A stretch of 64,000 nucleotides of DNA, taken from contig MNYK01000110.1 in assembly GCA_001873115.1 (NCBI GenBank), positions 23,118-87,117 on the forward strand, read 5' to 3'. This DNA comes from Desulfobacterales bacterium CG2_30_60_27 (lineage in GTDB: Bacteria; Desulfobacterota; Desulfobulbia; Desulfobulbales; CG2-30-60-27). Positions 13,403-36,357 of this stretch are shown piece after piece. The position numbers and the translations under genes are program-made. Below the pieces are notes generated by a model. The model had not been told where the DNA came from and did no database searches. It was given only the letters and a program-made list of their open reading frames with translations. The first letter of the stretch is position 1. Every line of letters begins with the position of its first letter.

Positions 13403-14095
13403 TTATCTCCCCTCATAGCCCGGGTCAATCGGCAACCCCTGCCGCTGGGCCTCGGCCACTGCCAATTCATCGCAACGTTCGTTCATGGGATGGCCGGCAT
13501 GGCCTTTCACCCATTTGAAGGTGATATCGAGTCCAGCCACCAGATCCAGCAGTTCGGCCCAGAGATCGGCATTGAGGGCCGGCTGTCGGTCTGATTTGAT
13601 CCAGCCCTTCCGCCGCCAGTTTCTGGCCCATCCCTTGGTGATGCCGTTCACCACATAGCTGGAATCGGAATAGAGCGTAACCTTTTTATCCCGGTACTCC
13701 AAGGTGCGCAGGGCCATCAGGCAGCCCATGAGTTCCATGCGATTGTTGGTGGTCAGCCGAAAGCCGCCGGAGCGTTCATGGCGTTCGCCATTATAAAGCT
13801 GCACCACCCCATAGCCTCCGGGGCCCGGGTTGTAGCGGGCCCCGCCGTCGGTGTAGATCGTCACCTCGCCTGATTTGGGCAAGATATCGGTGCGGGCGGG
13901 TGCGGGCGGGCGCAACCGTTTGCCGGCGCCGGTATCTGAATGCGGCTCTGCCAGCCAGCGTTCCGCCTCTGCCTTGGTGGCAAACCCTTTGAACCTGGCG
14001 TGCGGAAAGCCCCGTACCTGGGCATGGGCAAAGGGCCAATTTTCGTAAATCCCCGGCTTTCGGCCTACAGCAATGGCGTAGAATTTCTTCGGCAA
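13403..14095 (-). CDS. rnhA: Ribonuclease HI with N-terminal RNA/DNA hybrid-binding domain
   Basis: N-terminal FYAIAVGRKPGIYENW...FKGFATKAEAERW (HBD/Cauli_VI type). RNase H core IYTDGG...ELMGCLMAL...LYSDSSYV...WVKGHAGHPMNERCDELA. Confidence 0.9.
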   Translation of the reverse strand: MPKKFYAIAVGRKPGIYENWPFAHAQVRGFPHARFKGFATKAEAERWLAEPHSDTGAGKRLRPPAPARTDILPKSGEVTIYTDGGARYNPGPGGYGVVQLYNGERHERSGGFRLTTNNRMELMGCLMALRTLEYRDKKVTLYSDSSYVVNGITKGWARNWRRKGWIKSDRQPALNADLWAELLDLVAGLDITFKWVKGHAGHPMNERCDELAVAEAQRQGLPIDPGYEGR

Positions 14096-14287: not shown

Positions 14288-14914
14288 TCACCTGCCTTGC
14301 GCCAACAATGGCGGCAGGGCGGCGGCAATCTCCCGGGCGAGATGCGAGATCGCCTGACTTAAGGCGACAGTCATTGACTCCTGGTCCTGGGCGGTGGCGG
14401 TCAGATTGAAGCTGCTGCGTTTTTCCGGCAGGAGCACCAGACCATCTTTGCCTGTAACCTGCCAGCGGGCGATCAGGTTCGCCGTGCCGTTGGGCCCGCC
14501 TTCGAACTGTAAGACCTCAACCCGGATCTGGCAGTCGATGGTTCGTCCGCGTGTCCAGGGGTAGGGCAGGATGCGATCCGTGCCGAGCAACGCCGAGAGG
14601 TCTTCGGCAAGGACCCGTGGCAGGTTTTCGGCCAAGGGTTCGGCCCAACGCTGGCGGTCCGAGAGGCTCAGGCGGTTCGCGGAAGTCCTGCTGACAATCT
14701 GCGGTCTTACCAGATATTCCGGCAGAGATACCGGGCCAAGCCCGATGGTGGCTTCCTTGGACACGGCAAACTCGGCAGGAGCGCCAACCTCGCGCATTGC
14801 CGAAAGCTGATAGTATTGGACCGGTATGGAACGGGCGCAGCCGGTCAGCAGGACGGCCAGCGCCAACGCCAGGGAAAGGCGCTCTTTTATCGGGCGGCAA
14901 TGGCTATGGTTCAT
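14288..14914 (-). CDS. ABC-transport auxiliary lipoprotein (PqiC/YmbA, DUF330-like)
   Basis: Lipobox LLTGC, about 200 aa, and translationally coupled downstream of an MCE protein (4-nt overlap). Confidence 0.7.
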   Translation of the reverse strand: MNHSHCRPIKERLSLALALAVLLTGCARSIPVQYYQLSAMREVGAPAEFAVSKEATIGLGPVSLPEYLVRPQIVSRTSANRLSLSDRQRWAEPLAENLPRVLAEDLSALLGTDRILPYPWTRGRTIDCQIRVEVLQFEGGPNGTANLIARWQVTGKDGLVLLPEKRSSFNLTATAQDQESMTVALSQAISHLAREIAAALPPLLAQGR

Positions 14915-15948
14915 TGATTGGCCTCATGAAGTTTGCTTCTTAGAATTGCTTCCGGTTGCTGCTCCAGGGTTTCCGACAGCAGGCGCAAAGCGCGGGCGGC
15001 CCGGACAACCTCCTGCAAGGCTGCATTTAGATGTTGAGTGGTTGGGGATTCTTCTTCGGTTAAATAATGGATAGCCTGGGCAGCGGATGCCAGTTCTCGA
15101 CTTGCCTGGCTCACATTCCTGAACATTTCCGAGTCGGGATCAGCCAGCACCCCGACTTTGTCGGCCGCGGTTTTCACCTGCGCCGCAGCCCCGTCAATCT
15201 GGCTGGCGGCGGTCCGCACGGTGGTCAAGGTCTTGTTCAAGGCATCGAGATTGGCCTGCATCCCTTGCAAAATGGGCGGGCCGGCGGCATCAATCTTTGC
15301 TGACAGCGATTGCAGATGTCGCAGGGTCTTTTCAAGAAGCAGGGGCAGTTCCCTGGTCGTCTCCGAGGCGAGGATTTTGTTGACTGATTCGCCGATGGCC
15401 GCCAGGTCGTGCAAGAATTTTTCCATGGGAAATCCCTCCAGCTTCGAGGATATTTCCTCGGTTGTGCTCGGGATGGTCGGGATCTCGCTGAGCTCCGGGT
15501 CCGAGGCAAAGAATTTGGCGGCTTTGCCGGGGAAAAAATCAAGATCGACGTAGAGCTGGCCGGTCAAGAAACTCTGGATGCGGAGCCTGGCCCGCAGTCC
15601 GCGGCCCACCAGTTGTTTGATGGTCTGGCGGTCCTGCAAGTCGATCTGTTCGCCACTGCGTGACTGGACGACCGAGGACTCGACCTCGATGGTGACCGGC
15701 ACCAGAAAACGCCTGGTTTCTTCATCTAGCCCAAGCTGGATGCGCTTGACGGTACCCACCGTAACGCCCAGGAAGACCACCGGTGCCCCCACTTGCAGCC
15801 CCTGGGCCGCTCCTTCAAAATACATGATGTGCTGGCGCTTCTCGCGGAACCACTGGCCGCCGCCCAAGAGCAGGACAGTAACGACCCCGAGGGTGACGGC
15901 GCCAAGGACAAAGACACCGATGAGCGTTGGATTGGCGCGCTTGCTCAT
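14911..15948 (-). CDS. MlaD/MCE-family protein with coiled-coil C-terminus
   Basis: N-terminal TM segment, MCE core GLQVGAPVVFLGVTVGTVKRI and a long helical tail. Overlaps the flanking genes by 4 nt. Confidence 0.8.
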   Translation of the reverse strand: MSKRANPTLIGVFVLGAVTLGVVTVLLLGGGQWFREKRQHIMYFEGAAQGLQVGAPVVFLGVTVGTVKRIQLGLDEETRRFLVPVTIEVESSVVQSRSGEQIDLQDRQTIKQLVGRGLRARLRIQSFLTGQLYVDLDFFPGKAAKFFASDPELSEIPTIPSTTEEISSKLEGFPMEKFLHDLAAIGESVNKILASETTRELPLLLEKTLRHLQSLSAKIDAAGPPILQGMQANLDALNKTLTTVRTAASQIDGAAAQVKTAADKVGVLADPDSEMFRNVSQASRELASAAQAIHYLTEEESPTTQHLNAALQEVVRAARALRLLSETLEQQPEAILRSKLHEANQ

Positions 15949-16694
15949 GCCTCACCCCTGGTCAGGAAATGGCGCACCCTGGGATCGCCCGATTTGAGCG
16001 CCTCCCTTGGGTTGCCGGTGGCGATCATGGTGCGGGTCTCGTTATCCAGAAAGACTGAGTTGCTGCCGATATTCAGGATGCTCGCCAACTCGTGGGTGAC
16101 GACGACAATCGTGGTCCCGAGACTGTCGCGCAGTTCGAGAATCAAATCGTCCAGGCGGCGAGCGGTCAGGGGATCGAGCCCGGCCGAGGGTTCGTCGATA
16201 ACCATAATTTCCGGATCAAGGGCCATGGCCCGCGCCAGACCGGCCCTTTTTTTCATGCCGCCAGAGAGTTCCACGGGATAGAATTCCTCAAATCCGGCCA
16301 GACCCACCAAGGCAAGTTTGAAGGAGACGAGCTCGTCAATCCGGCGGGGCGGCAGGGTAGAGTATTCGATTAAGGGCAGGGCCACGTTTTCGGCAAGCGT
16401 CAAGGAGCTCCACAATGCGCCGCTCTGGAACATGATTCCCAGTCGGCGCTTCAAGCGTTCCTGGTCCTCCTGGGGCACGTTCCAGAAATCTTCACCGCTG
16501 TAAAAGATCGTGCCCGCCGTCGGACGTTGCAGGCCGACCAAGGCCCGCATCAATGTGGTTTTACCGCAACCGTTGCCACCCATGATGACGAAGATGTCCC
16601 CCTTATTAATGACGCAATTAAGGTCGTGTTGCACGACAAAATCACCATAGCCCATGGTCAGATTATCAATTTTGATATGGGGTTCGTTTGTCAT
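15945..16694 (-). CDS. ABC transporter ATP-binding protein (MlaF-like)
   Basis: Walker A GGNGCGKTT, signature LSGGMKKR, Walker B IMVIDEPSAGLD. Confidence 0.9.
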   Translation of the reverse strand: MTNEPHIKIDNLTMGYGDFVVQHDLNCVINKGDIFVIMGGNGCGKTTLMRALVGLQRPTAGTIFYSGEDFWNVPQEDQERLKRRLGIMFQSGALWSSLTLAENVALPLIEYSTLPPRRIDELVSFKLALVGLAGFEEFYPVELSGGMKKRAGLARAMALDPEIMVIDEPSAGLDPLTARRLDDLILELRDSLGTTIVVVTHELASILNIGSNSVFLDNETRTMIATGNPREALKSGDPRVRHFLTRGEA

Positions 16695-16706
16695 GATTTC
16701 TTCAAT

Positions 16707-16865
16707 AGGTGGACAGTCTGTAGAAAAGTATTAAGCAAATATCGAATATCGAACACAGAATGTCGAATCATGAAGTTTTGTTTCGGGCCGTGATTGCTGA
16801 TTTTTGTCTTTGGCAATCGCAGCAGGCGGCGGGCAGCGCTATAGTCTAACCAGCCAAGCAACCTC
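16707..16865. repeat. Degenerate family-B-like element inside the Mla-type operon
   Basis: Begins AGGTGGACAGTCTGTAG (compare AGGTGGATAGACTGTAG at 29357) and ends CTATAGTCTAACCAGCCAAGCAACCT (compare CTACAGTCTAGACAACCT). AT-richer interior. No intact GTAAC termini. Confidence 0.45.
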
Positions 16866-16870
16866 ATCCC

Positions 16871-18028
16871 TCAGATCCCCAACTGATAATAGATGATGGT
16901 CAACAGCGAGGCGGTGATGGTGATAAGCAGGATGCCGGTCACCACGGCCGAGGTCGCCGCCTCACCCACCGCCTCGGCGCTGCGGCCGCACTGTATGCCG
17001 CGCAGGCAGCCGGAATAGGCGACCATGGCGCCGTAAACGCTGCCCTTGGAAAGTCCTACCAGAAAATGCTTCAGTTCCAGGGCCTGTATCGTTTCCGTGT
17101 AATACTCGAAGACGCTGATATGAAAAATCGTGGTCGAGACCAGCATCCCTGCCAGCATACCGATGAAGCCCGCATAGAGGGTCAAAAGCGGCATCATCAG
17201 CATGAGGGCCAGAATGCGCGGTAAGACCAGAAAATCAATGGGCGAGATGCCCAAGGTCTTGAAGGCATCGATTTCCTCGTTGACCTGCATGGTGCCGAGT
17301 TGGGCGGCAAAGGCCGCGCCGGTGCGTCCGGCAATGATAATGCCGGTCATCAGCGCCCCCATCTCGCGTACCATGCCAATGGCGACCAGATCGGCGATAA
17401 AGCGCTGCGCTCCGACCATGCGTAATTGATCGGCCCCCAAATAGGCAAGGATAAGGCCGACCAGAAAACAGATAACCGAGACAATGAGCAGTGCCCTGGG
17501 GCCGATCTCCTCTACCTCCAGCCACAGATCACTCATGCGGAATTGGGCGCGGCCGGTTAGCAGCCGGCCAAAGGACAAGGTGATCTCGCCCAGGAAGTGC
17601 AACATCTCGGGTAGACCACGGAAAAATGCAATCGTCTCCGTGCCAACCTGAACCAACAGGGTTTGCCTGCCGCCCGTCCGGTCGCTCACCTTTTGGGCGG
17701 GCACGGCAAAGGCCATGGTCAGCAGATGGCCAACGCCTGCCGGCAAGCCGCTCTGGTCAACCACGATTCCTCGGCCAACGCAGAATTTTCGCAGGGCGGC
17801 AAGAAAGGCCAGAAATCCGGAGTCCCAGGCGCCAAGTGCATCGGTGCGGAAAGTAAGCCGACGAAGATCCTCGGTCAACTCGGCGTGCAAGGCCGCGGAG
17901 GATGGCAGGTCCTGGTCAATGCACCAGCGCCCGGTGAAGACGACTTGCATTGCATCGGGCTCGATGCGGCGCGTTTCCAGATGCCACGCCGCCTCTTGGT
18001 TGCCAGTTATGGAATGCGCCGTCTTCAT
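16871..18028 (-). CDS. MlaE-family ABC permease with N-terminal STAS/MlaB-like domain
   Basis: The C-terminal ~260 aa is a polytopic MlaE-type permease (GPRALLIVS..., EEIDAFKTLGISP). The N-terminal ~120 aa is a soluble extension. Confidence 0.8.
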   Translation of the reverse strand: MKTAHSITGNQEAAWHLETRRIEPDAMQVVFTGRWCIDQDLPSSAALHAELTEDLRRLTFRTDALGAWDSGFLAFLAALRKFCVGRGIVVDQSGLPAGVGHLLTMAFAVPAQKVSDRTGGRQTLLVQVGTETIAFFRGLPEMLHFLGEITLSFGRLLTGRAQFRMSDLWLEVEEIGPRALLIVSVICFLVGLILAYLGADQLRMVGAQRFIADLVAIGMVREMGALMTGIIIAGRTGAAFAAQLGTMQVNEEIDAFKTLGISPIDFLVLPRILALMLMMPLLTLYAGFIGMLAGMLVSTTIFHISVFEYYTETIQALELKHFLVGLSKGSVYGAMVAYSGCLRGIQCGRSAEAVGEAATSAVVTGILLITITASLLTIIYYQLGI

Positions 18029-18266: not shown

Positions 18267-18313
18267 AGCAACACCCAAGGCGCCCGCAAAACCACGGCGC
18301 CTTGGGTGTTGCT
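18267..18313 (-). terminator. Perfect 18-bp stem-loop downstream of the cytochrome gene (possible terminator or RNA-stability element)
   Basis: AGCAACACCCAAGGCGCC - 11 nt - GGCGCCTTGGGTGTTGCT. No U-tract follows on the minus strand, so terminator function is uncertain. Confidence 0.4.
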
Positions 18314-18333: not shown

Positions 18334-19770
18334 TTACGGCGCATCATGGCAAAGGCCGCAATCCTGGGTGATGGTCTTGCCCTCCGTCGTGGCATGTTCC
18401 TCGTCATGACAACGCCAGCAGCCATAGCCTTCGTCGGCATACTGGTGCCCCAGGTGGCCCTTGTAGGTGCCCCATTGGATATTCATCTCTGGCCAGACGT
18501 TGGCCATATAGACTTCCAGGAGAAACTCTCCGGCCTTCCCGAGGTCGGCCTCGTGCTGTTTGGCGGTGCCGGGGTCGCGCAGGGTCTGCAAGGCGATAAG
18601 GGCGTCCACCATTTTGGCCTGTGCCTCCTTGCGGGTTGTGTACTGGCTGGTCACGACCGTGAGGCTGTCTTCCCGGATGCCTGGAATTTCAGGGTTGATG
18701 CGCCGGCTGAGCAGGCCGAAATCCACCCGTTCCTCGGGCATCTGATAGACGTGGGTCGGTCGGTTGTGGCAATCGATGCAATCCATGGTCCGCCATTGGT
18801 GTTCCTGGTCCTCCTTGACCTCGGCCAGGTCGCTTTTCACGAACTCTTCCTCGCTGCCGTCGGGCCTGGTCACCTTGACCCGGGCGATCTTGGTCCGCCT
18901 TTCGTCCTCGGCCAGATATTTTACCTGGACATTTTTGCTCACATGCCAGTGGATGCCCTCGAAGGCGTCGGTTTCAGGATTGCGACCGCCGATATGCAGA
19001 GCAATCTCGGTCACCTCTGGCTTGCTCTGGTCGGCGTTGGTGAAGCGTTTGAAGGTCTTGACCTTTTTGCCGTGGAATTTCTCTGGCCAATGGCAGGTCT
19101 CGCAGGTATCGCGGGCCGGGCGCAGATGCTCCACCGGGGCGGGAATCGGCCGGGAGTAGCTGTTGGTGAAAATCGCCACCACCTGCCGGAGGCCGGAGAT
19201 CTTGGCGCGCACGAACCAGTCGGCGCCCGGGCCGATATGGCATTCCACGCAGACTACCCGGGCGTGGGGGGAGCGCTGATAGACCGTGTACTCCGGTTCC
19301 ATGACCTGGTGGCAGACCTGGCCGCAGAAATAGGCGGAGTCGCTGAAGTGATAGCCCTCGTAAGCGACCATGGCAAAGATGCAGACATTGATCACCGTAA
19401 GCACCATGAAACCAATCACCCAGCGCCGATGGCTGTGATCGCTAAGGTTAAGTGTCAGGTGCTCCCTGGATATCCCATACTTGTACCACTTGCGTCGCCG
19501 CAGAAAGGCGGCAATGGGAATCAGGGCCAGCCCGGTGAGCATCAGGCCCGGCAGGATGAGGTAGGTAAAGAAGCCCGCATAGGGGTTGTTAAAAAATCCC
19601 AGCAGGTCCACCGCCATGCCGATCACCAGCAGGGTGGCGCTGATAGTGGTGATGGTAACGCCCATCAGCCCCAAGGGCGACCGCCACATGCCGCGGATGA
19701 TGTGGCCCCACGGCCCTTGGTGCTGCGCTTCATTATTATCTTTTGCCTGTTTACCGGTGTCCTCTGTCAT
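18334..19770 (-). CDS. Membrane-anchored multiheme cytochrome c (NapC/NirT/NrfH-like N-terminal module plus extended periplasmic domain)
   Basis: ORF 18334..19842. Three N-terminal TM helices. Heme motifs CVECH, CETCH, CIDCH, CWRCH and CGLCH, plus an atypical CGQVCH (CX3CH). Likely start is MTEDTGK (19770), preceded by GGGAGAAGG. Confidence 0.85.
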   Translation of the reverse strand: MTEDTGKQAKDNNEAQHQGPWGHIIRGMWRSPLGLMGVTITTISATLLVIGMAVDLLGFFNNPYAGFFTYLILPGLMLTGLALIPIAAFLRRRKWYKYGISREHLTLNLSDHSHRRWVIGFMVLTVINVCIFAMVAYEGYHFSDSAYFCGQVCHQVMEPEYTVYQRSPHARVVCVECHIGPGADWFVRAKISGLRQVVAIFTNSYSRPIPAPVEHLRPARDTCETCHWPEKFHGKKVKTFKRFTNADQSKPEVTEIALHIGGRNPETDAFEGIHWHVSKNVQVKYLAEDERRTKIARVKVTRPDGSEEEFVKSDLAEVKEDQEHQWRTMDCIDCHNRPTHVYQMPEERVDFGLLSRRINPEIPGIREDSLTVVTSQYTTRKEAQAKMVDALIALQTLRDPGTAKQHEADLGKAGEFLLEVYMANVWPEMNIQWGTYKGHLGHQYADEGYGCWRCHDEEHATTEGKTITQDCGLCHDAP

Positions 19771-19855
19771 CACCTTCTCCCATGCTGGAAATTTTTTTTG
19801 CTTATGCCATGCGCAACCACCTCGGGAGGCGGGCATGGCCACTCCGTAATCGACC

Positions 19856-21853
19856 CTAACCGGCCTCTGTTACCGGCAGTGCAATGGAAACCGTGGTATG
19901 ATCGCCTACTACGCTTTCTATCTTGATTTGACCGCCATGGTCCTCCACCAGCATTTTACTGATGGTCAGGCCAAGGCCGGTGCCCTCGCCGGGCGGTTTG
20001 GTGCTGTAAAGGGGATCAAAGACCAAGGGAAGCACACTGGCGTTGATGCCGCCGCCCCAGTCGGTTATCGAGGTGCGCAACCAGCTTCTGCCCTCGGAGA
20101 AGACCACCTCGCCGGTGATGGTTAGCCGCTTTTGTTTGTCCTGGCCTGGATAGCGAGCGTTGAGGGCCTGGCGGGCGTTGTTAAAAATGCAGAGGAAGAC
20201 CAGTTGCATGTATTCCAGGTCGACATCAACGGACGGCAGGGCGCTGGCCAGGGAGATGGTGGCAATGATGCCATCGTTCTTCAGTTGCCGTTCCACCAGG
20301 GCGTAGACGCCTTGTACCACATGCGCCATGGGCAGGCGGGACAAGGTCGGCCGCTTGCCGCGGGATAGAAACAGCAGTTGCCTGAGTACGTCGCCGATGC
20401 GTTCCCCCTCGTCCATGACCTTGCGGAGCAGGTCGGCCTGGGGGCCTCCGGTGGGAGCGAGCTCATCAAACAGCACCTGGGCATAATTGATGATGCCGTT
20501 GACCAGATTCCTGACCTCGTGGGCCACCCCGGCGGCCAGCTCCCCCATGGCCGCAAGGCCGCAAATCCGCACGGTGAGGGCATTGAAGTCGCCCTCCTCG
20601 GTCACCTTCATGTCTCGGACCTGCAGGGCATGACAGGCCAGGGCTGCCTCGTCCACCAAATTGCGCAGGATTTCCATGTCCGTTGCCTGAAAACTGTCAT
20701 CAGCAAGGGCGTAGATAGTGAGCACGCCAAAGACCTCGTCCCGCCAGCGCATGGACAGGGCCGCACCATGCACCGGGCCGGCGGCAAAGGGCGTATTTTT
20801 CAGTAATCCTCTCGGAGTGCCGGCCAGGAGATCCCGGGCGATCACCGGGCCGCCCTGGGCCATGGCCAGATGGGAAGGATCTTTTTCCCTGCCCGAGGCC
20901 CGCACCTGGGCGAGCAGCAAATCCAGACAGACCTCGCATTCATGCTGGTCCATGGTGGTCGAGCCATCCACCGCCACCGGTATTAAGGTGTCGTCCCCAG
21001 CCGTCGCCTGGCCGATCCACACCAGGGCATGGTCGCTGTCCTGCATCAGGGCCCGGCACAGGGACTGGTTGAGTTCCTCGCACGAGCGGGCCTGGCGGAT
21101 GCCCTCGCCGGCCGCGGTCACGGCCGCAAGCAAGTGGTCCCGATGGGCGGCGGCCTTGGCCTGCCGGTCATGCGCCACGATCAGGCCATTGACGGCCTGG
21201 GTCAACTCCACCAGATCATTGCAGGCCTTGGCGTCGTGCTCCAGGATGTCCCTGCCGAACTCCTTTGTCTTACAGCGGGCCACCAGGCCCAAAAGCGGCA
21301 GAATGACCTGCCGGTACCAGAGCAGCACCAAAAAAGTACACAGGCATAGAACCATGGCCAGCCCGCCGATCACCACACTCTGGAACTCCACCAGCACGAC
21401 CTTGGCCTGGCTGGCGACAATGCGGTCAAAACGCATAAGCTGATCACCGATCAGCCGGACCTTGGCGTTGAGCTGGCCGGCCGTCTCCTGGTTTGGCCGG
21501 GCGCCCATTTTTTTGAGCAGCATGATAATCCCTGGCAGGTCCAGTTGATCCAGGAAGGTCAGTTCGTACGCACCGGGAATGCGCCCGCTCTCCAGCACCC
21601 TGACAAGGTCGCCGTTCATCGTTTCGGCCTCCAGGGTAATGGCGGCCATCAGGTCGTAGCGGTTTTCCAGCAGGGCCTCCGTAATCCGCTCTTTTAGCGT
21701 GGCAAAGCGGAAGACAAGTTTTTCGCTCTGCTCGATGACCGCCTGGTACCGTCCGGTCAGGAGGTATTGCCTGGCCCCCAGCAGGACGACAACGCTCAAG
21801 ATGGCGGCCATGAGCAGAATGGTGGTATAGAGGGTTTTTCTGAGGGAAAACAT
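19856..21853 (-). CDS. Sensor histidine kinase (2 TM + periplasmic domain, GAF, HisKA, HATPase_c)
   Basis: H-box [23 protein letters not shown]2 [12 protein letters not shown], and a central GAF-like region. 3-nt gap to the upstream ftsH stop. Confidence 0.85.
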   Translation of the reverse strand: [665 protein letters not shown]

Positions 21854-21856
21854 AAT

Positions 21857-23749
21857 CTATGAGGCGATGGCCTCCTGCATGTGGGTGCAGTGGGCCGCCG
21901 CGGGGCAGGTGCTGCACTCGTGCAGGGAACCGTCTTCACCATGCTCGCTTACCGTTGCGGCTGCCTGTTTTTTCTGGGTGCAGTCGAAGATGATCCGTAA
22001 CTCCTCGCTGTCCAGGGTTTCCGTCTGCAGGAGGATCTCGGCCAGGTTGACCAAAAAATCCTTTTCCTGGTTGATGATGGCCACTGCCTCCCGGTAACAG
22101 CCTTCCACCAGCACCTTGATTTCCTTGTCAATCCGCCGGGCGGTCTCCTCGCTGTGCGCCATCAGGGTGGTCTGCTCGCCCAGAAAGCCGCTGTCATCCT
22201 TGGCATAGGCCAGCGGGCCCATGGTTTCACTCATCCCCCATTTGCAGATCATCTTCATGGCGATCTCCGTGGCCCGGAAAAGATCGTCCTGGGCGCCAGT
22301 GGTCTGCTGGGCGAGGACAATCTCCTCGGCCGCCCGGCCACCAAGAAGGGTGGTGATCCGGGTGCGCAGGTATACCTTGGAATAGGCGTGCCGGTCTTTC
22401 AGGGGCAGTTGCTGGGTATTGCCCATGGCCCGGCCGCGCGGAATGATGGTGATCTTATGGACGGGATCGGATTCCGGCAGAAAGCGTGCCACGATGGCAT
22501 GGCCGGCCTCGTGGTAGGCCATGGTCCGCCGGTCCTTTTCCGTGATGATCAGTCCCTTGCGCTCCACACCCATGAGGATGCGGTCCTTGGCCGCCTCGAA
22601 ATCCGGCAACTCGATGGCCTCCTTGCCATGCCGGGCCGCCAGCAGCGCCGCCTCGTTCACCAGGTTGGCCAGGTCGGCGCCGGTGAAGCCGGGCGTGCTG
22701 CGGGCCACGCTGAACAGATCGATATCCTTCATCACCTTGACCCGCTGGGCGTAGACCTCGAGAATCTTGAGCCGGCCTTTGACATCAGGGGGGAGGATAT
22801 TGATCTGCCGGTCGAAGCGGCCCGAACGGAGCAGGGCCGGGTCCAGAATATCCGGCCGGTTGGTGGCGGCCAGCACCACAATGGTATCGGTGGAACTGAA
22901 ACCGTCGATCTCCACCAGCAGGGCGTTCAAGGTCTGGCCCCGCTCGTCCTGCCCGCCCATGGCGCCGGCCGCGCCGCGATGGGCGCCCACCGCATCGATC
23001 TCGTCAATGAAGATGATGCAGGGGGCGTTCTTCTTGGCCTCCTTGAACAGGTCCCGCACCCGTGAGGCCCCAACGCCCACGAACATCTCCACAAAGTCCG
23101 AGCCGCTGAAGCTGAAGAACGGCACACCCGCCTCGCCGGCAATGGCGCGGGCCAAGAGCGTTTTACCCGTGCCCGGCGGCCCTTGCAGCAAAACACCTTT
23201 CGGGATGGAGGCGCCAATACGGCTAAAATGCGTCGGATTTTTCAGAAACTCGATGATCTCCATCAACTCCTCTTTCGCCTCCGGGATGCCGGCCACGTCC
23301 TTGAAGGTCACCTGTTTTTCACTGGCGTGGTATTTGATGACCTTGTCCTTGGCAAAATCACTTTCCTCCTTGCCTCCCTGCTGACGACGCGCCAAAAATA
23401 TCCAGGCGCCCAAGATGAGCAGCATGGAAATCCCCAGGGAAACGCTGTTCAAGAACAGGTAGGAGTGCTCCGGCCGCGCCGACACCACCACCTGCCGGCC
23501 CATCAATTTGGGCAGCAGGACGTCGATGTCCGGGGAAAATGTCGCCAATTCCCGGCCATTGCTGTCGGTAAAACAGACCTCGCCGCCGCGCAGGCGGACC
23601 TCCTTGACCTCGCCCTTGTTCAGAATGGCGAGAAAGTCGGTGTAATTGATAATTTCCGGCCTGGTCTCCAGGTTCCAGAAAACAACGGCAGTGGCGGCCA
23701 CAATGAGGAGGATGAGGCCGATGAAGAGATTACGAATAAGCAGCGCCAT
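21857..23749 (-). CDS. ftsH: ATP-dependent zinc metalloprotease FtsH (possible paralog with Cys/His-rich C-terminal tail)
   Basis: Two TM segments, Walker [12 protein letters not shown], Walker [19 protein letters not shown] zinc site. Unusual tail DCTQ...[14 protein letters not shown]. Confidence 0.9.
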
Positions 23750-23971
23750 GGCTTTATTCCCTTGGTATGTCAGGAGGATCGGCCGGTCCCCTGCCGGTCA
23801 CGGGTAGGGCCGCCTGTCGCGGACCCGCATGACTTATTATTACCCGAACAATTCTGTTTCGCCATCCATATTCTGACGGCGGCCATGACCGCAGCGCCTT
23901 TTCTCCTGGCTTGCCAGGCCGACACTCACTGTGACATCGTGTCAGAAAGGCCGGCAACCCGGACCCGCACC

Positions 23972-24014
23972 ACAAAAAAAGGTGAAGTGACGACTGCTCG
24001 CCCCTCACCTTTTC
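23972..24014 (-). terminator. Intrinsic terminator ending the small-protein array
   Basis: Minus strand reads AAAGGUGAGG - loop - CUUCACCUUU (10-bp stem, one G-U pair) followed by UUUUUGU. It lies 60 nt after the stop of the last small gene. Confidence 0.7.
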
Positions 24015-24074
24015 TTTACCAACCAGCCCGGCCGGTCCCGCCCCGCGCCGTCTGCTGATTTCACCTGGTCGAGA

Positions 24075-24323
24075 TCAACCGCCCAGCACCGCCTGCACCC
24101 ATTGCGACACAAAGCTCAGCGGGTTGCCGGCGCTCATCATGCCGCCCAGCAGGAAGAGCAAGCCAAGCACCCCGACCACGCCACCCACGGCCAGGATGGT
24201 CACCAGGCCGACCTTGCTCATCTCAAGATCGACATCCTGAACTGCCCGGCTCCGGCCGGTGGCCGTATTGGCGGTATCCTTTGTCCTGACCTTGGCGATT
24301 GCCACTGAAGATATGTCTTTCAT
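24075..24323 (-). CDS. Small single-TM protein, paralog 4 of 4 (82 aa)
   Basis: Shares E.SKVG - Gly-rich TM - GG..S.G.P..F...W..AV.GG with the three upstream genes. AAGAGG RBS. Confidence 0.75.
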   Translation of the reverse strand: MKDISSVAIAKVRTKDTANTATGRSRAVQDVDLEMSKVGLVTILAVGGVVGVLGLLFLLGGMMSAGNPLSFVSQWVQAVLGG

Positions 24324-24350: not shown

Positions 24351-24575
24351 CTACAATCCAAGCACGGCCCCGAACCAGCCCTTGACAAAAGCGAGCGGCC
24401 CGCCGCTGTTGACCAGACCGCCGACAAAGCAGGAAAGGCCCCAGATGCCGATGAGCGCCGCGACAAAACCGATGACGCCAACCCCAACCTTGGACACCTC
24501 CGCCTCGACCTGGGCGGTTGCCTGACTGGTTACCTTGCTTCTTTCCTTGGATGTGGTGAACGGTTGGTTCATCAT
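24351..24575 (-). CDS. Small single-TM protein, paralog 3 of 4 (74 aa)
   Basis: ORF 24351..24731 trimmed to MMNQPF (ATG at 24575), where an AGGAGA RBS sits 6 nt upstream. The longer N-terminus would overlap paralog 2. Confidence 0.8.
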   Translation of the reverse strand: MMNQPFTTSKERSKVTSQATAQVEAEVSKVGVGVIGFVAALIGIWGLSCFVGGLVNSGGPLAFVKGWFGAVLGL

Positions 24576-24916: not shown

Positions 24917-25132
24917 TCAGCCGCCGATCACGGCGCTGTACCAGGAGCCGATGAAGGCCACAGGACCAGCGCTGCCGAGCAGGCCGCCAATCAAGCAGGC
25001 CATCGCCCAGAGGCCGACAAGAACCGACCCGATACCCATGGCACTGATCCCGACCTTGTTCAGTTCGCTGTCCAGTTGGACCGTCGCGGTTGTTCTGTTG
25101 ATCGCCTTGGTTCTTGTAGTTGCCCTGTTCAT
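24917..25132 (-). CDS. Small single-TM protein, paralog 1 of 4 (71 aa from ATG 25132; the ORF track starts at GTG 25138)
   Basis: GGAGGA lies 7 nt upstream of ATG 25132. Conserved LVGLWAMACLIGGLLGSAGPVAFIGSWYSAVIGG. Confidence 0.8.
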   Translation of the reverse strand: MNRATTRTKAINRTTATVQLDSELNKVGISAMGIGSVLVGLWAMACLIGGLLGSAGPVAFIGSWYSAVIGG

Positions 25133-25179: not shown

Positions 25180-25195
25180 TGCAAGCACAATGCCA
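25180..25195 (-). promoter_or_regulatory. Sigma-54 (-24/-12) promoter of the small-protein array
   Basis: Minus strand reads TGGCATTGTGCTTGCA, which fits TGGCAC-N5-TTGCA with correct GG-N10-GC spacing. It lies about 45 nt upstream of the first small gene and directly downstream of a sigma-54 EBP gene. Confidence 0.8.
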
Positions 25196-25278: not shown

Positions 25279-25304
25279 CCACAGCGTAGGATGATACGCT
25301 GTGG
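25279..25304. promoter_or_regulatory. Palindrome CCACAGCGTA-N6-TACGCTGTGG, candidate enhancer (UAS) site
   Basis: 10-bp perfect inverted repeat about 90 bp upstream of the -24 element. It shares the CCACAG/CTGTGG core with the palindrome at 25379-25420. Confidence 0.4.
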
Positions 25305-25378: not shown

Positions 25379-25420
25379 CCCCATGCCACAGGTGTGTTGC
25401 ACCACATCTGTGGCATGGGG
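25379..25420. promoter_or_regulatory. Palindrome CCCCATGCCACAG-N16-CTGTGGCATGGGG, candidate UAS and/or terminator hairpin of the EBP gene
   Basis: 13-bp perfect inverted repeat 8 nt after the EBP stop codon and about 190 bp upstream of the sigma-54 promoter. No U-tract. Confidence 0.4.
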
Positions 25421-25428
25421 TGAGGTTG

Positions 25429-27219
25429 CTACACTTTTGCTACATTCTCCGCAATGTCATGGATGCGCATTTTGCGGTAAAGGGTGCTGCGGTCGAAGGC
25501 GAGCAGTCTGGCCGCCTTGGCCTTGTTGCCGCCGGTCTGCCGCAGGGCCGCGACAATCCGTTCCTTCTCGCTCATGCCGTCAACAGCCAGGGGAAACAAC
25601 GGGACGGCGGACCGCGGCCGCTGTAGCCCGGTGGTGTCGAGCTCCGAGGGCTGACCGGTGCGGATCTCCTCGGTGAAGTGCTCCAGGGCCACGGTGGAAC
25701 CATCGCAAAGGATGCAGGCCCGTTCGATTACATGTTCAAGCTCGCGGACGTTGCCGGGCCAGCGATACTGCGTAAGGGCCGCCATGGCCTGGTCCGAGAT
25801 GCCGCTGATCTCCTTGCCGAGTTTTTCCTGGAAGATGCCGAGAAAATGCGTTACCAGCAACGGCAGGCACTCCTGGCGGTCCCTGAGCGGCGGCAGCCTG
25901 AGTTCCATCACCCGCAGACGAAAATAAAGATCCTCGCGGAAGGTGCCGTCGGTCACCTTCTGGCGCAGATCGGCGTTGGTGGCCGCTATCACCCGGACAT
26001 CTACCTGGATGGGCTGATCCCGGCCCACGGGATAGAAGGTCTTCTCCTGCAGGAAGCGAAGCAATCTCAACTGCATGCGTGGCGAGATGTCGCCGATCTC
26101 ATCCAGAAAGAGGGTGCCGCCGTCGGCCTGCAGGATGCGGCCCATACGGTCCCGGTCGGCGCCGGTGAAGGAGCCCTTGCGGTGGCCAAACAGCTCGCTT
26201 TCCATGAGTTCCTCCGGGATGGCGGTGCAATCGACCTTGATCAGGGGTTGGTTGCGGCGCGGGCTTTCGGCGTGCAACGCCTCGGCGGCCAGCTCCTTGC
26301 CCGTGCCCGACTCGCCGGTGATGAGCACGGCAGTATCGACCTTGCCGACATTTTCGATCAGGGTATAGAGGGCCTGCATGGCCGGGCTGCAGCCAATAAA
26401 GCGATGGAAGCGGCAGCGGCGCCCCTTGACGTTGGTCTCCGCCTCGCCGGTGACATCGCGGGCCACCAGGACAACGCCCTGAAAAATGCCGGCACCGTCC
26501 TGCAGCGGGGCGGCATTGATGCTCAAAATGCGCTCGCTGTCACCGGGCTTCATGCATTCCACTCGATGTTCCCGTACCTCCTCATGGCTGCGCAGCACCT
26601 TTTGCACGTCCCGGCGGCAGGCCTCGCCAAGCTCACCGGCCATGGTCCCCAGAGTCAGGTCAGAGTCCTTACCGATTTTCAGCCACTCCCGGGCCGTATC
26701 GTTAAGCTGGACGATGCGCAGGTCATTGTCAACCGTGATAATGGCGTCCCGCACTGAACGAAAGACCGTTTCCAGGTAATGCCGGAATCGTTGGTTTTCC
26801 GCCTCCAGCCGCTTCTTTTCTTGAAGCAGTCGCCACTGTTTCAGGGCCTGGCGGGTAAAATGCAGCAAAGACTCCTTGTTGATCGGCTTGGGGAGGTAAT
26901 CAAAGGCGCCGAGACGGACGGCCTCGGCCGCTGTTTCCAGATTGGGGAATCCGGTGATCATGACCACCGGGCATTCGATGCCGGCCGCCCGGATCTCCCG
27001 CAGCAGATCGGTGCCCGAGGCCCCTTCCAGCACGATGTCGCTGATGATCAGATCAAACTCCTGCTGTCTGACCGCGGCCAGCGCCTCCGGATAGGTGGCC
27101 GCGGTGCGAACCATGCCGTACCCTTCACGGGTCAGGAACATCTCAAAGGTAAGTCGCAGGCTCTCCTCGTCGTCCACGATCAGGATGCGTGCCGTGCCTT
27201 TTTCCGTTTCGTCCACCAT
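25429..27219 (-). CDS. Sigma-54-dependent response regulator (REC-PAS-AAA+ sigma-54 interaction-Fis HTH; NtrC/PilR class)
   Basis: ILIVDDE...DLIISDIVL receiver, GESGTGKELAAEALH Walker A, ESELFGHRKGSFTGA (GAFTGA-type loop), C-terminal HTH AARLLAFDRSTLYRKM. Confidence 0.9.
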   Translation of the reverse strand: MVDETEKGTARILIVDDEESLRLTFEMFLTREGYGMVRTAATYPEALAAVRQQEFDLIISDIVLEGASGTDLLREIRAAGIECPVVMITGFPNLETAAEAVRLGAFDYLPKPINKESLLHFTRQALKQWRLLQEKKRLEAENQRFRHYLETVFRSVRDAIITVDNDLRIVQLNDTAREWLKIGKDSDLTLGTMAGELGEACRRDVQKVLRSHEEVREHRVECMKPGDSERILSINAAPLQDGAGIFQGVVLVARDVTGEAETNVKGRRCRFHRFIGCSPAMQALYTLIENVGKVDTAVLITGESGTGKELAAEALHAESPRRNQPLIKVDCTAIPEELMESELFGHRKGSFTGADRDRMGRILQADGGTLFLDEIGDISPRMQLRLLRFLQEKTFYPVGRDQPIQVDVRVIAATNADLRQKVTDGTFREDLYFRLRVMELRLPPLRDRQECLPLLVTHFLGIFQEKLGKEISGISDQAMAALTQYRWPGNVRELEHVIERACILCDGSTVALEHFTEEIRTGQPSELDTTGLQRPRSAVPLFPLAVDGMSEKERIVAALRQTGGNKAKAARLLAFDRSTLYRKMRIHDIAENVAKV

Positions 27220-27236: not shown

Positions 27237-28817
27237 TTATGGCCTGGGGCCGGCCGCGGCCCGGGCATTGTTTTCCCTGCTCACCGGGATGTCCACCGTG
27301 ATTGTCGTATAGTTATCCAGCACCGAATCAACCCGCATGACGCCCTTGTGGTCCCGTACTATCCCGTGGCTGATCGACAGTCCCAGGCCAGTGCCCTCGC
27401 CAGGCGGCTTGGTGGAAAAGAATGGGTCAAAGAGCCGGTTCAGGATCCCCTGGGGGATGCCCTTGCCCCAGTCCGTGATCATGGTCCGGACACACTCGCC
27501 GCCATCCGCCACCACGGCATGACAACTGATCCTGAGCTTCTTGCCCGGGTTCTGCCCCGGATATCTTTCGTTGAGCGCATAGCGGCAGTTGCTGAGCAGG
27601 TTAAGAATCACCTGTTGCAGTTGCTGGGCATGGCCTCGCACCGGCGGCAGATCGTCTTCAAGGTCCAGCGCCAAGGCGATACCGTCTTTCTGAAACTGAT
27701 GTCCGACCAGGGCCAGGCTGTCGCCGATGACTTCCTTCATGCTGACCATGGCGTTGCCCTTGTCAGACTCCCGGGCAAAGGAGAGCAGTTTGTAGATGAT
27801 GGTGGAGATGCGCTCGCCCTCCTTGATAATGCGGGTCAGCAGGTCACGCTGCGGCGCATCCGGCACCATGTCGTCCAGCATGAGTTGGGCATAGTTGATG
27901 ATGCCGTTGATCGGGTTGTTGATTTCATGGGCCACGCCGGCGGCCAGTTCGCCGATGGCGGCCAGTTGCCCGGTGCGCATGGCCTCTACCTTGCGCACCT
28001 CTTCCTTGGTAAGATCACGGGCGACGAGCATGATCTGGCGCACCTCGCCGTTTAAATCGGGAACCGGCGAGACGGTGAGCAGATAGTCGCCGAAGAGGCC
28101 GGGCAACCGCGTTTCCATGATCTTGCGGGCCCGGGTCAGCAGCAGTTCCTCCAACGGGCATTTGATATGGGGCAGCCGGCCGCCGTGGATAATTTTGCAC
28201 ACACCATGGCCGATGATCTCCTCGCGGGTCTTGCGGGCCACGTGGATGGTCGCCGGGTTCACTTCGGTGATAATGCCCTCGGGGGTAACAATCAGGATGG
28301 GATCCTGGACCGCGTTGAACACCTCACCCCAGCCCGGCTGTGAAGGCCCGATATGCTGGTCCCTGAACTTGAACTCAGTGACCAGAAAGCCCAGGTGGCG
28401 CAGTCCGTCCCGCAGTTTGTCCCAGGTGATCGGCTTGGTGATGTAATCGCTGGCCCCGGCCTCGAAGGCCCGATCAATGGCCACCTCCTCATCCTCGGGT
28501 ACCATGAGGATGGTCAGAGTCCTTTCGGCGTCAGGCATCTTCATGATCTGACTGCAAAGATAATAGCCGCTGATATCGGGCAAGTCCACGTCGAGCAGCG
28601 CCACGTCGGGCTGGTTGCGGATAAAGGCGGCCATGGCCGACTCACCGTCCGCCACCTCCTCCACGGTGTAGCCGCTGATCTCCAGAAAACGGCGGATCAT
28701 GAGCCGTCGTTCCCGGTCGGCATAAGCCACCAGAAACCTGGACCATTTCCCCTTGCTTTTGAAGGGTTTTTCTTCCATGGCCAACCTGCTCTTGGGGTGT
28801 CGGGCGCACTGCGACAA
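27237..28817 (-). CDS. Cytoplasmic receiver-PAS histidine kinase
   Basis: N-terminal REC ([13 protein letters not shown]), PAS, H-box [34 protein letters not shown]. No TM segments. 17-nt gap to the EBP gene. Confidence 0.85.
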   Translation of the reverse strand: [526 protein letters not shown]

Positions 28818-28903: not shown

Positions 28904-29335
28904 TCAGACGATAATGGGGTCGCCTGTCTTGGCCTCGCCGCCCTGGATCACCCTGGCAAACCGCCCCTCGCGGGGCATGATGCAGTCGCCGGTGGCCTTC
29001 TTGATGGCGCAGCCCTGGTTGTGACATTCCTTGCCGATCTGGGTGATCTCCAGGATCACCTCGTCGCCGATCCGCAAGCGGTCGCCGATCTTGAGCGCCG
29101 TGAGATCGAGGCCACGGGTGATGATGTTTTCGGCAAAGGCCCCATTCTTTAAAGAAGGAAGGATCTTTTTGACGTTATCGATGGATTCGCCGGCCAGCAG
29201 CGAAATCTGACGGTGCCAGTCGCCGGCGTGGGCGTCATTCTCCATGCCCCACTGGGTTTTCAGGACAACCTTGATCTGTTCGCGCTTGACCATGCCCTTC
29301 TTTTCGCTGATACAGACTGCTTCCACATGCGCCAT
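28904..29335 (-). CDS. MOSC domain-containing protein
   Basis: 143 aa. MOSC-like beta-barrel signature (GAFAENIIT.GLDL...IGD.L.IG....EITQIGKECH). Last gene of the Moco cluster. Confidence 0.7.
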   Translation of the reverse strand: MAHVEAVCISEKKGMVKREQIKVVLKTQWGMENDAHAGDWHRQISLLAGESIDNVKKILPSLKNGAFAENIITRGLDLTALKIGDRLRIGDEVILEITQIGKECHNQGCAIKKATGDCIMPREGRFARVIQGGEAKTGDPIIV

Positions 29336-29353
29336 TGTCGTTATCTCCTTGCG

Positions 29354-29438
29354 GTTAGGTGGATAGACTGTAGGGGTTCAGTCTGTTAGCAATTGATATT
29401 ACCTAACAGACTACAGTCTAGACAACCTGAGTGGTTAC
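29354..29438. repeat. Family-B MITE, short/left-truncated copy
   Basis: AGGTGGATAGACTGTAGG...CTGTTAGC / CTAACAGACTACAGTCTAGACAACCTGAGTGGTTAC. The right terminus is intact and overlaps the moeA stop codon. Confidence 0.6.
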
Positions 29439-36340: not shown

Positions 36341-36357
36341 TGCCTGCCTCCTCCTTG

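Follow-up and report, generated by a model that had tools for sequence, protein, structure and literature searches.

The 64,000-nucleotide stretch of contig MNYK01000110.1 of Desulfobacterales bacterium CG2_30_60_27 that was analysed here, referred to below as the window, contains a gene group in which an array of four small membrane protein genes is followed by ftsH, encoding a membrane protease, by a membrane sensor histidine kinase gene and by the gene of a multiheme cytochrome c. Based on a comparison with related loci (designated by L numbers, L001 being the closest relative), we propose, with a probability of roughly 0.55, that this group is one copy of a conserved module, encountered here in no loci other than those of Desulfobulbia type, in which a menaquinol-oxidising unit is placed under the control of a dedicated signalling and proteolysis chassis. 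This chassis would consist of four parts, namely a (REC-)PAS kinase acting with a REC-PAS-sigma-54 activator, one to four small membrane proteins whose expression is driven by sigma-54, an FtsH with a cysteine-bearing tail, and a sensor with two transmembrane (TM) helices. The features of the window on which this proposal is based are listed here in the direction of transcription.

27237-28817, minus strand: cytoplasmic REC-PAS-histidine kinase, 526 aa, first gene of the module (Response_reg, PAS_4, HisKA and HATPase_c; no TM helix)
25429-27219, minus strand: REC-PAS-sigma-54 enhancer-binding protein, 596 aa (Sigma54_activat at 230 bits, Response_reg, PAS_4 and HTH_8)
25379-25420, no strand: 42-bp palindrome, candidate activator site, with 21-nt arms that are 90% complementary, located approximately 185-225 nt 5' of the promoter
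25279-25304, no strand: second inverted repeat, CCACAGCGTA-N6-TACGCTGTGG, with the common half-site CCACAG/CTGTGG
25180-25195, minus strand: predicted sigma-54 (-24/-12) promoter TGGCATtgtgcTTGCA, TGGCAT-N5-TTGCA, 47 nt 5' of the first small gene
24917-25132, minus strand: small membrane protein 1, 71 aa, ATG at 25132 behind GGAGGAA, one TM helix
24638-24859, minus strand: small membrane protein 2, 73 aa, paralog of the array
24351-24575, minus strand: small membrane protein 3, 74 aa, paralog of the array
24075-24323, minus strand: small membrane protein 4, 82 aa, divergent subtype without the W..AC motif
23974-24016, minus strand: predicted intrinsic terminator (GC-rich hairpin followed by T7) closing the small-gene array, in the 325-nt spacer
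21857-23749, minus strand: FtsH-clade AAA+ zinc metalloprotease, 630 aa, with a C-terminal Cys4 tail (TIGR01241, Pfam and motifs)
19856-21853, minus strand: membrane sensor histidine kinase, 665 aa, two TM helices (HisKA and HATPase_c above threshold)
21179-21853, minus strand: TM-periplasmic-TM sensor of this kinase, residues 1-225, its conserved part
20636-21088, minus strand: GAF-like insert of this kinase (sub-threshold in Pfam)
19868-20548, minus strand: DHp and catalytic domain of this kinase (HisKA, HATPase_c)
18334-19770, minus strand: ImcH-family inner-membrane multiheme cytochrome c, 478 aa, with three TM helices, CX3CH and five CXXCH
18267-18313, no strand: stem-loop 3' of the cytochrome stop codon, with a perfect 18-bp stem and without a U tract

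Conservation of the module and exchange of its redox unit

Co-occurrence of the ftsH-kinase-cytochrome unit with the small-protein array in relatives, which had been set beforehand as a test of the initial annotation of this DNA, was observed from four entry points (cytochrome, FtsH, small proteins and sensor domain), and the same set of neighbours was found to recur in Desulfobulbia-type loci. A scan of a genome collection with the cytochrome returned 80 species-level loci (36-68% identity) from Desulfobulbales, Acidobacteriota, Anaeromyxobacter, Geobacter, Syntrophus, Zixibacteria, Verrucomicrobiia and others, these taxa overlapping the phyla for which ImcH homologs have been reported (PMC4251993; PMC6295460). 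The loci were labelled by tblastn and hidden Markov models, FtsH being scored within a 10 kb flank, and FtsH was found beside the cytochrome in 15 of 31 Desulfobulbia-type loci as compared to none of 49 loci from other phyla. Small-protein genes are present together with FtsH in 13 of these 15 loci, and the other two end at a contig edge just 5' of ftsH. Contexts sampled from the small-protein entry point contain a sigma-54 activator, small genes, FtsH and a redox unit, and two contexts sampled from the FtsH entry point show the order small-small-FtsH-ImcH-like cytochrome-MerR. Finally, a metagenome scan with the sensor domain (kinase residues 1-240, five-sequence alignment) yielded 22 loci in which small genes lie directly 5' of the sensor or of an FtsH-sensor pair wherever upstream sequence exists, the ImcH-like cytochrome usually being next after the sensor.

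The full order of kinase, sigma-54 activator, small genes, FtsH, kinase and cytochrome is found in L001 and L004, with differing flanking genes. Other loci present variants of this order, ftsH being divergent in L012, L019 and L026, the small genes flanking the cytochrome in L006, and a second ImcH-like paralog replacing the kinase in L003, L007 and L012. This variation in order and in flanking genes indicates that the linkage has been maintained through rearrangement.

In four loci (L087, L094, L104 and L110) the place of the ImcH-type cytochrome within the chassis is taken by a cytochrome c with five hemes, an iron-sulfur protein of the NrfC type and a membrane subunit of the NrfD type, and the parts retained in these loci are the sigma-54 activator, the sigma-54 promoter(s), a small protein, FtsH and a homolog of the 2-TM sensor. 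As judged from these comparisons, the signalling and proteolysis chassis would be the constant part of the module, and a quinone-interacting, periplasm-facing redox unit its variable part. The exchange of cargo with retention of the chassis argues that the small proteins serve the sensor, FtsH or the activator, and that they are not fixed subunits of ImcH.

Several observations were made on these and similar loci. The NrfCD-type chassis occupies positions 8000-14300 of L087 and 5900-13400 of L094. Locus L088 (6400-12500) contains three tandem pairs, each composed of a 75-aa small protein and a membrane protein of 102-104 aa and each placed behind its own sigma-54 promoter, with IS200/IS605 Y1 transposase genes between the copies and two kinases and a sigma-54 activator upstream; neither FtsH nor a cytochrome is present within the 12.5 kb examined. 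A partner gene of approximately 100 aa 3' of the small gene is also found in L087, L094 and L110.

Predicted proteins of the module

The cytochrome contains TM helices at residues 42-60, 71-89 and 118-136 (hydropathy peaks), and its heme-binding motifs are CGQVCH at residue 149 and CXXCH at residues 174, 223, 331, 451 and 471, which agrees with the initial count of five CxxCH motifs and an N-proximal CGQVCH. The ImcH family is defined by three N-terminal TM helices, an atypical CX3CH beside the membrane domain and five to nine additional CXXCH motifs (PMC6295460), with a NapC/NirT-like region across TM3 and the first hemes (PMC4251993; PMC6295460). The window cytochrome displays this arrangement, with three TM helices, the CX3CH directly after TM3 and then five CXXCH. 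The heme-1/quinol-site residues of ImcH from Geobacter sulfurreducens, being E127, H137, K173, Q179 and Y188 (PMC4251993; PMC6295460; bioRxiv 10.1101/2023.05.03.539133), occur at exactly these positions in the Geobacter homolog L085 (504 aa, seven heme motifs), which was taken as the ImcH ortholog on the basis of this residue numbering and its seven-heme layout, and which was used as a stand-in for GSU3259. At the corresponding aligned positions the window cytochrome carries D, H, K, Q and Y, the replacement of E127 by D being conservative, and it shares 37.4-38.7% identity over 452 aligned residues with L085 and a second Geobacter homolog, L060. It contains six heme motifs rather than seven because the C-terminal extension that carries heme 7 in L085 is missing. 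The window cytochrome is a six-heme member of the ImcH family and, by homology, a putative menaquinol dehydrogenase.

The cytochrome had initially been labelled NapC/NirT-like, and its N-terminal region is indeed homologous to these proteins: Pfam Cytochrom_NNT matches with 28.6 bits (cutoff 24.1), and the sole match among solved structures is NrfH (2j7a, E = 0.0015) over residues 127-232, encompassing TM3 and the first hemes. However, the family is ImcH, of which CX3CH is a hallmark. The NrfH equivalog TIGR03153 scores 44.3 as compared to a cutoff of 134.2, and TorC 16.8 as compared to a cutoff of 455; assignment to the NapC/NirT/NrfH tetraheme class was rejected in view of three TM helices, six hemes including CX3CH, and homology that is confined to the N-terminal region. 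An AlphaFold2 model of the cytochrome has a mean predicted local distance difference test (pLDDT) score of 59, with heme regions below 50.

The ftsH product scores 746.6 bits against TIGR01241 (cutoff 600), matches Peptidase_M41, AAA, AAA_lid_3 and FtsH_ext of Pfam, and contains TM helices at residues 7-25 and 102-120, Walker A GPPGTGKT, Walker B DEID, the second region of homology, HEAGH and a downstream AEE for the third Glu ligand. Its C-terminal tail had been noted as unusual with respect to clustered cysteines, a feature which the comparison with 120 homologs and 150 representatives establishes as real and clade-specific. The window FtsH carries C590 (in DCTQ) followed by C612-x2-C615-P-x4-C621 (coordinates 21887-21982). 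All of the 120 closest homologs (at least 58% identity) possess a cysteine four to five residues past the conserved ETLDxEE..II helix, and 47 of them also possess CxxCPx3-5C, resulting in four cysteines as in the window FtsH. Among the nearest 150 representatives of the FtsH family, the CxxCP motif was encountered in P0371 only, and this protein groups with the module clade. In a neighbour-joining tree (without bootstrap) the FtsHs of the module, including those linked to NrfCD, form one clade apart from approximately 40 other representatives, and one non-module representative lies in a housekeeping setting of rpsU, mutS2, dnaG and rpoD. This supports the assignment of the module FtsH to a putative specialised lineage. 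A tblastn search revealed no second ftsH in the 64-kb window, the only other match being an MgsA-type AAA protein at 50-1474; the best 120 FtsH homologs are all of the module type, and none of them provides a second ftsH within one genome.

The membrane kinase (HisKA 43.5 bits, HATPase_c 58.3 bits, H-box HEVRN at residue 445) possesses two TM helices which enclose a periplasmic segment of approximately 130 aa. Of its earlier description as a 2-TM/GAF histidine kinase, the TM helices and kinase domains hold, whereas the GAF-like region scores below the Pfam gathering threshold (GAF_2 24.5, cutoff 28.6; GAF 20.1, cutoff 22.4) and is missing in the kinase of the closest relative (L001, 488 aa, no intervening domain), with PAS at this place in L004. 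Across loci only the N-terminal TM-periplasmic-TM module of the sensor is conserved, its variable C-terminus being GAF-like plus kinase in the window, kinase alone in L001 and PAS plus kinase in L004. At least eight loci encode versions of approximately 300 aa in which a DHp-like helix has Asn in place of the phospho-acceptor His and no ATPase domain is present, and such His-less membrane pseudo-kinases are located between ftsH and the cytochrome gene in L018, L021, L023, L025, L027, L029, L033 and L086. The soluble REC-PAS kinase has an ortholog at the matching position in L001, L004, L018, L025, L027, L086 and L114-116, and its DHp region shares 43-45% identity with that of the membrane kinase; the pseudo-kinase sensors presumably signal through this soluble kinase. 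In most loci the junction between ftsH and the sensor gene is 5 nt or less, or the genes overlap, which suggests that the sensor gene is translationally coupled to ftsH.

The four small genes are paralogous and each has a strong ribosome-binding site. Gene calls of the Joint Genome Institute on identical contigs correspond to 71, 73, 74 and 82 aa, and the 126-aa open reading frame (ORF) given for small membrane protein 3 in a mechanical ORF list represents an over-extension. The N-terminus of these proteins is rich in K, R and T, a single TM helix is present, and the conserved C-terminus has the form '...GG..xSGGPLxxxxxWfxAVxG', and an AlphaFold2 model of small protein 3, of modest confidence, consists of a helix (residues 8-55), the SGGP turn and a second helix (residues 61-71). 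Orthologs of the divergent small membrane protein 4 were found in L001, L004, L006 and L076. The ratio of nonsynonymous to synonymous substitution rates (dN/dS) against L001 is 0.23, 0.13 and 0.23 for small proteins 1, 3 and 4, respectively, and the small genes are under purifying selection (dN/dS 0.13-0.23). Comparison of the four proteins with Pfam gave no match and with NCBIfam no meaningful match, and a profile search retrieved 115 clusters among 5.8 billion proteins, all of which are unnamed or hypothetical. The layout of the locus is reminiscent of pilS-pilR-pilA; an identity as type IV pilins was ruled out because the sequences lack the G/FTLIE prepilin motif.

Transcript boundaries and predicted sigma-54 control

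All genes of the region are located on the minus strand, with ftsH, the kinase gene and the cytochrome gene arranged head to tail. Upon recheck, the coordinates, shared strand and minimal spacing reported for these three genes all hold: 3 nt separate the ftsH stop codon from the kinase start, and 85 nt separate the kinase stop codon from the cytochrome ATG, which is preceded by the ribosome-binding site GGAGAAGG. A scan of both gaps for promoters or terminators that could split the three genes revealed no terminator-like and no sigma-70-like site. The unit had been described as one tight operon immediately downstream of the small-protein array, of which the tight packing was retained, whereas 325 nt and a conserved terminator were found to precede ftsH. 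This terminator is kept with compensatory changes in L001 and L004, and a hairpin with a T run is present between array and ftsH in 10 of 16 loci. The perfect 18-bp hairpin reported to close the unit at 18267-18313 was recovered as well. Together with a small upstream hairpin it has a dG of -52 kcal/mol (z = -6.9 as compared to shuffled sequences), and it is probably a transcript-end or stabilising structure. An identity as a repetitive extragenic palindromic (REP)-like repeat was ruled out because the sequence is single-copy in the window.

The predicted promoter at 25180-25195 is, with one mismatch, the joint best sigma-54 match of the window, tied with a site at 39267-39282. Because the window as a whole contains no more pattern matches than chance would give (25 found, 41 expected), the weight of this site derives from its conserved position only, a -24/-12 element being located 47-90 nt 5' of the first small gene in approximately 20 of 25 arrays. 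Both inverted repeats lie 85-225 nt upstream of the promoter and have the half-site CCACAG/CTGTGG in common, and the core of the palindrome, TGCCACAG...CTGTGGCA, is conserved in L001 and can still be recognised in L004. The enhancer-binding protein contains a GSFTGA loop at residue 349, and its gene adjoins the small-gene arrays in related loci. The small-gene unit combines a predicted sigma-54 promoter, upstream palindromes and an adjacent enhancer-binding protein, and the position of the promoter together with the conserved terminator implies that the small genes form the primary sigma-54 unit. Two-component control of small-protein production, as suggested by the initial annotation, is supported by the promoter in approximately 20 of 25 arrays, by the palindromes and by the neighbouring activator; as judged from these elements, a two-component/sigma-54 system very probably controls this production. 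The ftsH, kinase and cytochrome genes would be transcribed by read-through or from a promoter that was not recognised here.

In related loci ftsH and the cytochrome gene are usually without a -24/-12 element, exceptions being L004 (all three units) and L094 (ftsH). In L004, sigma-54 promoters at 5891-5906 and 9861-9876 (TGGCATTCTCATTGCA and TGGCATTTATATTGCA) precede ftsH and the cytochrome gene, and the small genes, the ftsH unit and the cytochrome appear to belong to one predicted sigma-54 regulon. A conserved block 5' of the window ftsH, GATGGCGAAACAGAATTGTTCG, was rejected as a promoter, as its spacing is wrong for sigma-54 and the sigma-70 scan flagged nothing there. A block at 23900-23935, kept between the window and L001 5' of ftsH, contains TGACA-N3-TGTCA (CTGACACGATGTCACAG); it resembles the CCACAG half-sites and may be a candidate regulator-binding site. 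Where the sigma-54 activator and promoter are missing, as in L003 (12854-13267), in L090 (10752-11204) and in the contig found for P0283, a MerR-family gene is located shortly 3' of the ImcH-like cytochrome and may provide an alternative redox- or metal-responsive control.

Concerning the surroundings of the module, MOSC-domain and MoeA (molybdopterin molybdotransferase) genes are located directly upstream (28904-30646, minus strand), at a place where L004 has a MoaA-like radical-SAM gene, and a 1153-aa protein encoded at 33149-36610 has a weak molybdopterin-oxidoreductase match. Downstream of the closing hairpin, positions 14288-18028 (minus strand) encode an MlaE/MlaF/MlaD-type ABC transporter with an auxiliary lipoprotein, which is not kept in related loci; the MlaE homolog is 385 aa long and has an N-terminal extension of approximately 150 aa. 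An RNase H1 gene with an N-terminal Cauli_VI-type (dsRNA/hybrid-binding) domain is found at 13403-14095 (minus strand). A 526-aa ORF antisense to the cytochrome gene (18346-19926, plus strand) was considered a high-GC artefact, its GC content at third codon positions being 0.59 as compared to 0.77-0.81 in the neighbouring ftsH and kinase genes.

Proposed mechanism, competing explanations and known systems

In the proposed mechanism the cytochrome would, by homology, oxidise menaquinol and reduce periplasmic carriers, and the 2-TM sensor would respond to a redox cue, in the periplasm or the membrane, that is linked to electron flow through the quinol oxidase. The sensor would act on the sigma-54 activator directly where it is a full kinase, as in the window, or via the soluble kinase where it is a His-less pseudo-kinase. 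The activator would then fire the sigma-54 promoter and cause the synthesis of abundant small membrane proteins, activation reaching FtsH, the sensor and the cytochrome more weakly by terminator read-through or from an unrecognised promoter. The small proteins, with their N-terminus inside and the SGGP-helix C-terminus outside, would act on the chassis and not on the cargo, modulating the sensor by feedback and/or serving FtsH as adaptors or substrates; that FtsH degrades them is plausible. FtsH would determine how long the small proteins, the sensor or the cytochrome persist and would in this manner switch a respiratory branch on or off post-translationally, and FtsH itself may respond to redox state or metal through its Cys4 tail. 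A more specific version, which we put forward tentatively and regard as rather doubtful, is a proteolytic redox switch for the choice of respiratory branch, in which the sensor would read the redox state made by the quinol oxidase, the small proteins would be adaptors or anti-adaptors of a dedicated, redox- or metal-sensitive FtsH, and the branch would be installed or removed post-translationally.

A number of observations weigh against a dedicated chassis of this kind. FtsH is not located within 10 kb of the cytochrome in 16 of the 31 Desulfobulbia ImcH-like loci, and several sensor-side loci have the order small genes-sensor-cytochrome with no FtsH in between, implying that FtsH is a frequent and not an obligatory partner. 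The Fisher p value of 4.5e-8 for the FtsH-cytochrome linkage is inflated, as the loci are not independent in phylogenetic terms. Upstream of the window ftsH and cytochrome gene, neither a sigma-54 promoter nor a convincing sigma-70 promoter was found, and L003, L062, L076 and L090 are without the sigma-54 promoter and activator, having a MerR-type gene instead. Moreover, every functional arrow of the model is drawn from gene linkage.

It is rather unlikely, in our assessment, that the small proteins are CydX-like structural subunits or assembly factors of quinol-oxidising complexes, with FtsH acting in assembly quality control and the regulators controlling expression of the complex. Such a role would agree with the small genes being directly 5' of and co-oriented with two cytochrome genes in L012, L019 and L026, where ftsH is divergent, with their position on either side of the cytochrome in L006, and with the pairing of small genes and cytochrome without an intervening FtsH in the second copy of L019, in L011, in L013 and in several sensor-side loci. 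Yet the same small-protein family accompanies the unrelated cytochrome c-NrfC-NrfD set (L087, L094, L104 and L110) and occurs in L088 with no cargo in view, its genes are bracketed by a sigma-54 promoter and a terminator apart from the cytochrome, and one to four of them are found per single cytochrome. A phage-shock-type envelope stress response, in which the sigma-54 activator would induce small proteins and a protease against membrane damage or loss of proton-motive force and the cytochrome would be a neighbour or client, is considered improbable: no PspA or IM30 homolog was found in any locus examined, in every case the cargo is a redox unit that faces the periplasm and interacts with quinone, for which a generic stress system would have no use, and the sensor gene appears translationally coupled to ftsH and is directly 5' of the cytochrome gene. 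This is despite a resemblance to PspF driving the small single-TM proteins PspB, PspC and PspG, the role of FtsH as a general membrane quality-control protease, and a sigma-54 promoter that serves the small genes and not the cytochrome.

The remaining explanation, according to which a housekeeping ftsH and its neighbours have been kept by descent within one order with no functional coupling, is judged very improbable. The protein does reach the TIGR01241 equivalog cutoff with all catalytic motifs present, and the 64-kb window contains no second ftsH. On the other hand, the linkage outlasts inversions, insertions and different flanks, the module FtsHs form a separate clade whose Cys signature recurs in one of the 150 nearest representatives (P0371, itself joining this clade), and a non-module representative does sit in a housekeeping context. 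Furthermore, the absence of a nearby FtsH from 16 of the 31 Desulfobulbia ImcH-like loci also counts against this explanation, as does the location of ftsH 3' of a sigma-54 unit, with its own sigma-54 promoter in L004 and L094, which would be unusual for an essential gene. The reading of the locus as a menaquinol-oxidising unit under a signalling and proteolysis chassis is the one preferred here.

With respect to known systems, the window cytochrome resembles ImcH (GSU3259) of G. sulfurreducens in its three N-terminal TM helices, the CX3CH beside TM3, the NapC/NirT/NrfH-like region and the equivalents of H137, K173, Q179 and Y188, and it differs by having six heme motifs instead of seven and Asp at the position of E127. 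ImcH serves G. sulfurreducens as a menaquinol dehydrogenase of the inner membrane when extracellular acceptors of high potential are used (PMC4251993; PMC6295460; bioRxiv 10.1101/2023.05.03.539133), and the Geobacter imcH gene is monocistronic and constitutively expressed (PMC4251993; bioRxiv 10.1101/2021.04.15.440034), whereas the window gene follows ftsH and a sensor kinase gene in a sigma-54/two-component module and its host lineage is the sulfur-cycling Desulfobulbia. As compared to NrfH, NapC, NirT and CymA, the region of TM3 and the first hemes is homologous, but the window cytochrome has three TM helices instead of one, six hemes instead of four or five, and CX3CH instead of CXXCH at heme 1.

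The G. sulfurreducens cbcBA operon depends on sigma-54 and BccR, opens with two small hypothetical proteins, ends at a terminator and has been proposed to respond to redox potential (bioRxiv 10.1101/2021.04.15.440034). It is similar to the window module in that an inner-membrane quinol-oxidising cytochrome is placed under a REC-sigma-54 activator, whereas its cargo is a pair of di-heme b and seven-heme c cytochromes and not ImcH-type, and it includes neither FtsH nor a 2-TM sensor gene. The small-protein profile search retrieved no relative named from Geobacter, a direct comparison with the cbcBA hypothetical proteins not having been made. Among small membrane proteins, MgrB and SafA act with PhoQ, MgtR directs FtsH to MgtC, and SpoVM inhibits FtsH. 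The small proteins of the module are comparable in being short and single-TM, in their predicted two-component-controlled synthesis and in being encoded beside a membrane sensor and FtsH, and they differ by lacking sequence similarity, by their length of 70-82 aa, by the presence of one to four tandem paralogs and by the SGGP-helix C-terminus, their interaction with sensor or FtsH being a prediction. In cyanobacteria and chloroplasts, FtsH complexes are dedicated to the turnover of the D1 protein of photosystem II. By analogy, an FtsH lineage that is genetically tied to one electron-transport complex suggests dedicated turnover of a membrane protein that is damaged by redox reactions or regulated, although the window FtsH belongs to a different clade and has a C-terminal C-x(~21)-CxxCPx4C tail.

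All large proteins of the module belong to known families, and the module would fall among the sigma-54-regulated inner-membrane cytochrome clusters. In the library of papers searched, none contains both ImcH and FtsH, and among the papers retrieved there for ImcH in Desulfobulb* and for FtsH with sigma-54, small membrane proteins or cytochromes no title or abstract describes the module, nor is it described in PMC12133095. No description appears to exist of the conserved gene combination, the family of small proteins, the sensor domain and its pseudo-kinase forms, the FtsH clade with the Cys tail or the interchangeable quinol-oxidase cargo.

ImcH-type cytochromes constitute the entry of electrons from the quinone pool into extracellular or periplasmic electron transfer, and among the Desulfobulbia hosts are bacteria that disproportionate sulfur or oxidise sulfide as well as relatives of cable bacteria. 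For annotation, the module provides a new small-protein family, a new 2-TM sensor domain occurring in kinase and pseudo-kinase forms, and a clade of Cys-tailed FtsHs. How acceptor potential is sensed and how a choice is made among inner-membrane cytochromes is an acknowledged open question in Geobacter (PMC4251993; bioRxiv 10.1101/2021.04.15.440034). The module offers candidates for acceptor sensing and for post-translational control of respiratory branches, with a chassis that serves two quinol-oxidising complexes, and the proteolytic switch, if true, would be a hard-wired Desulfobulbia answer to sensing the redox potential of the acceptor and selecting inner-membrane cytochromes. The recurrence of this gene set suggests that Desulfobulbia control one branch of their respiratory chain by a circuit that has not been described.

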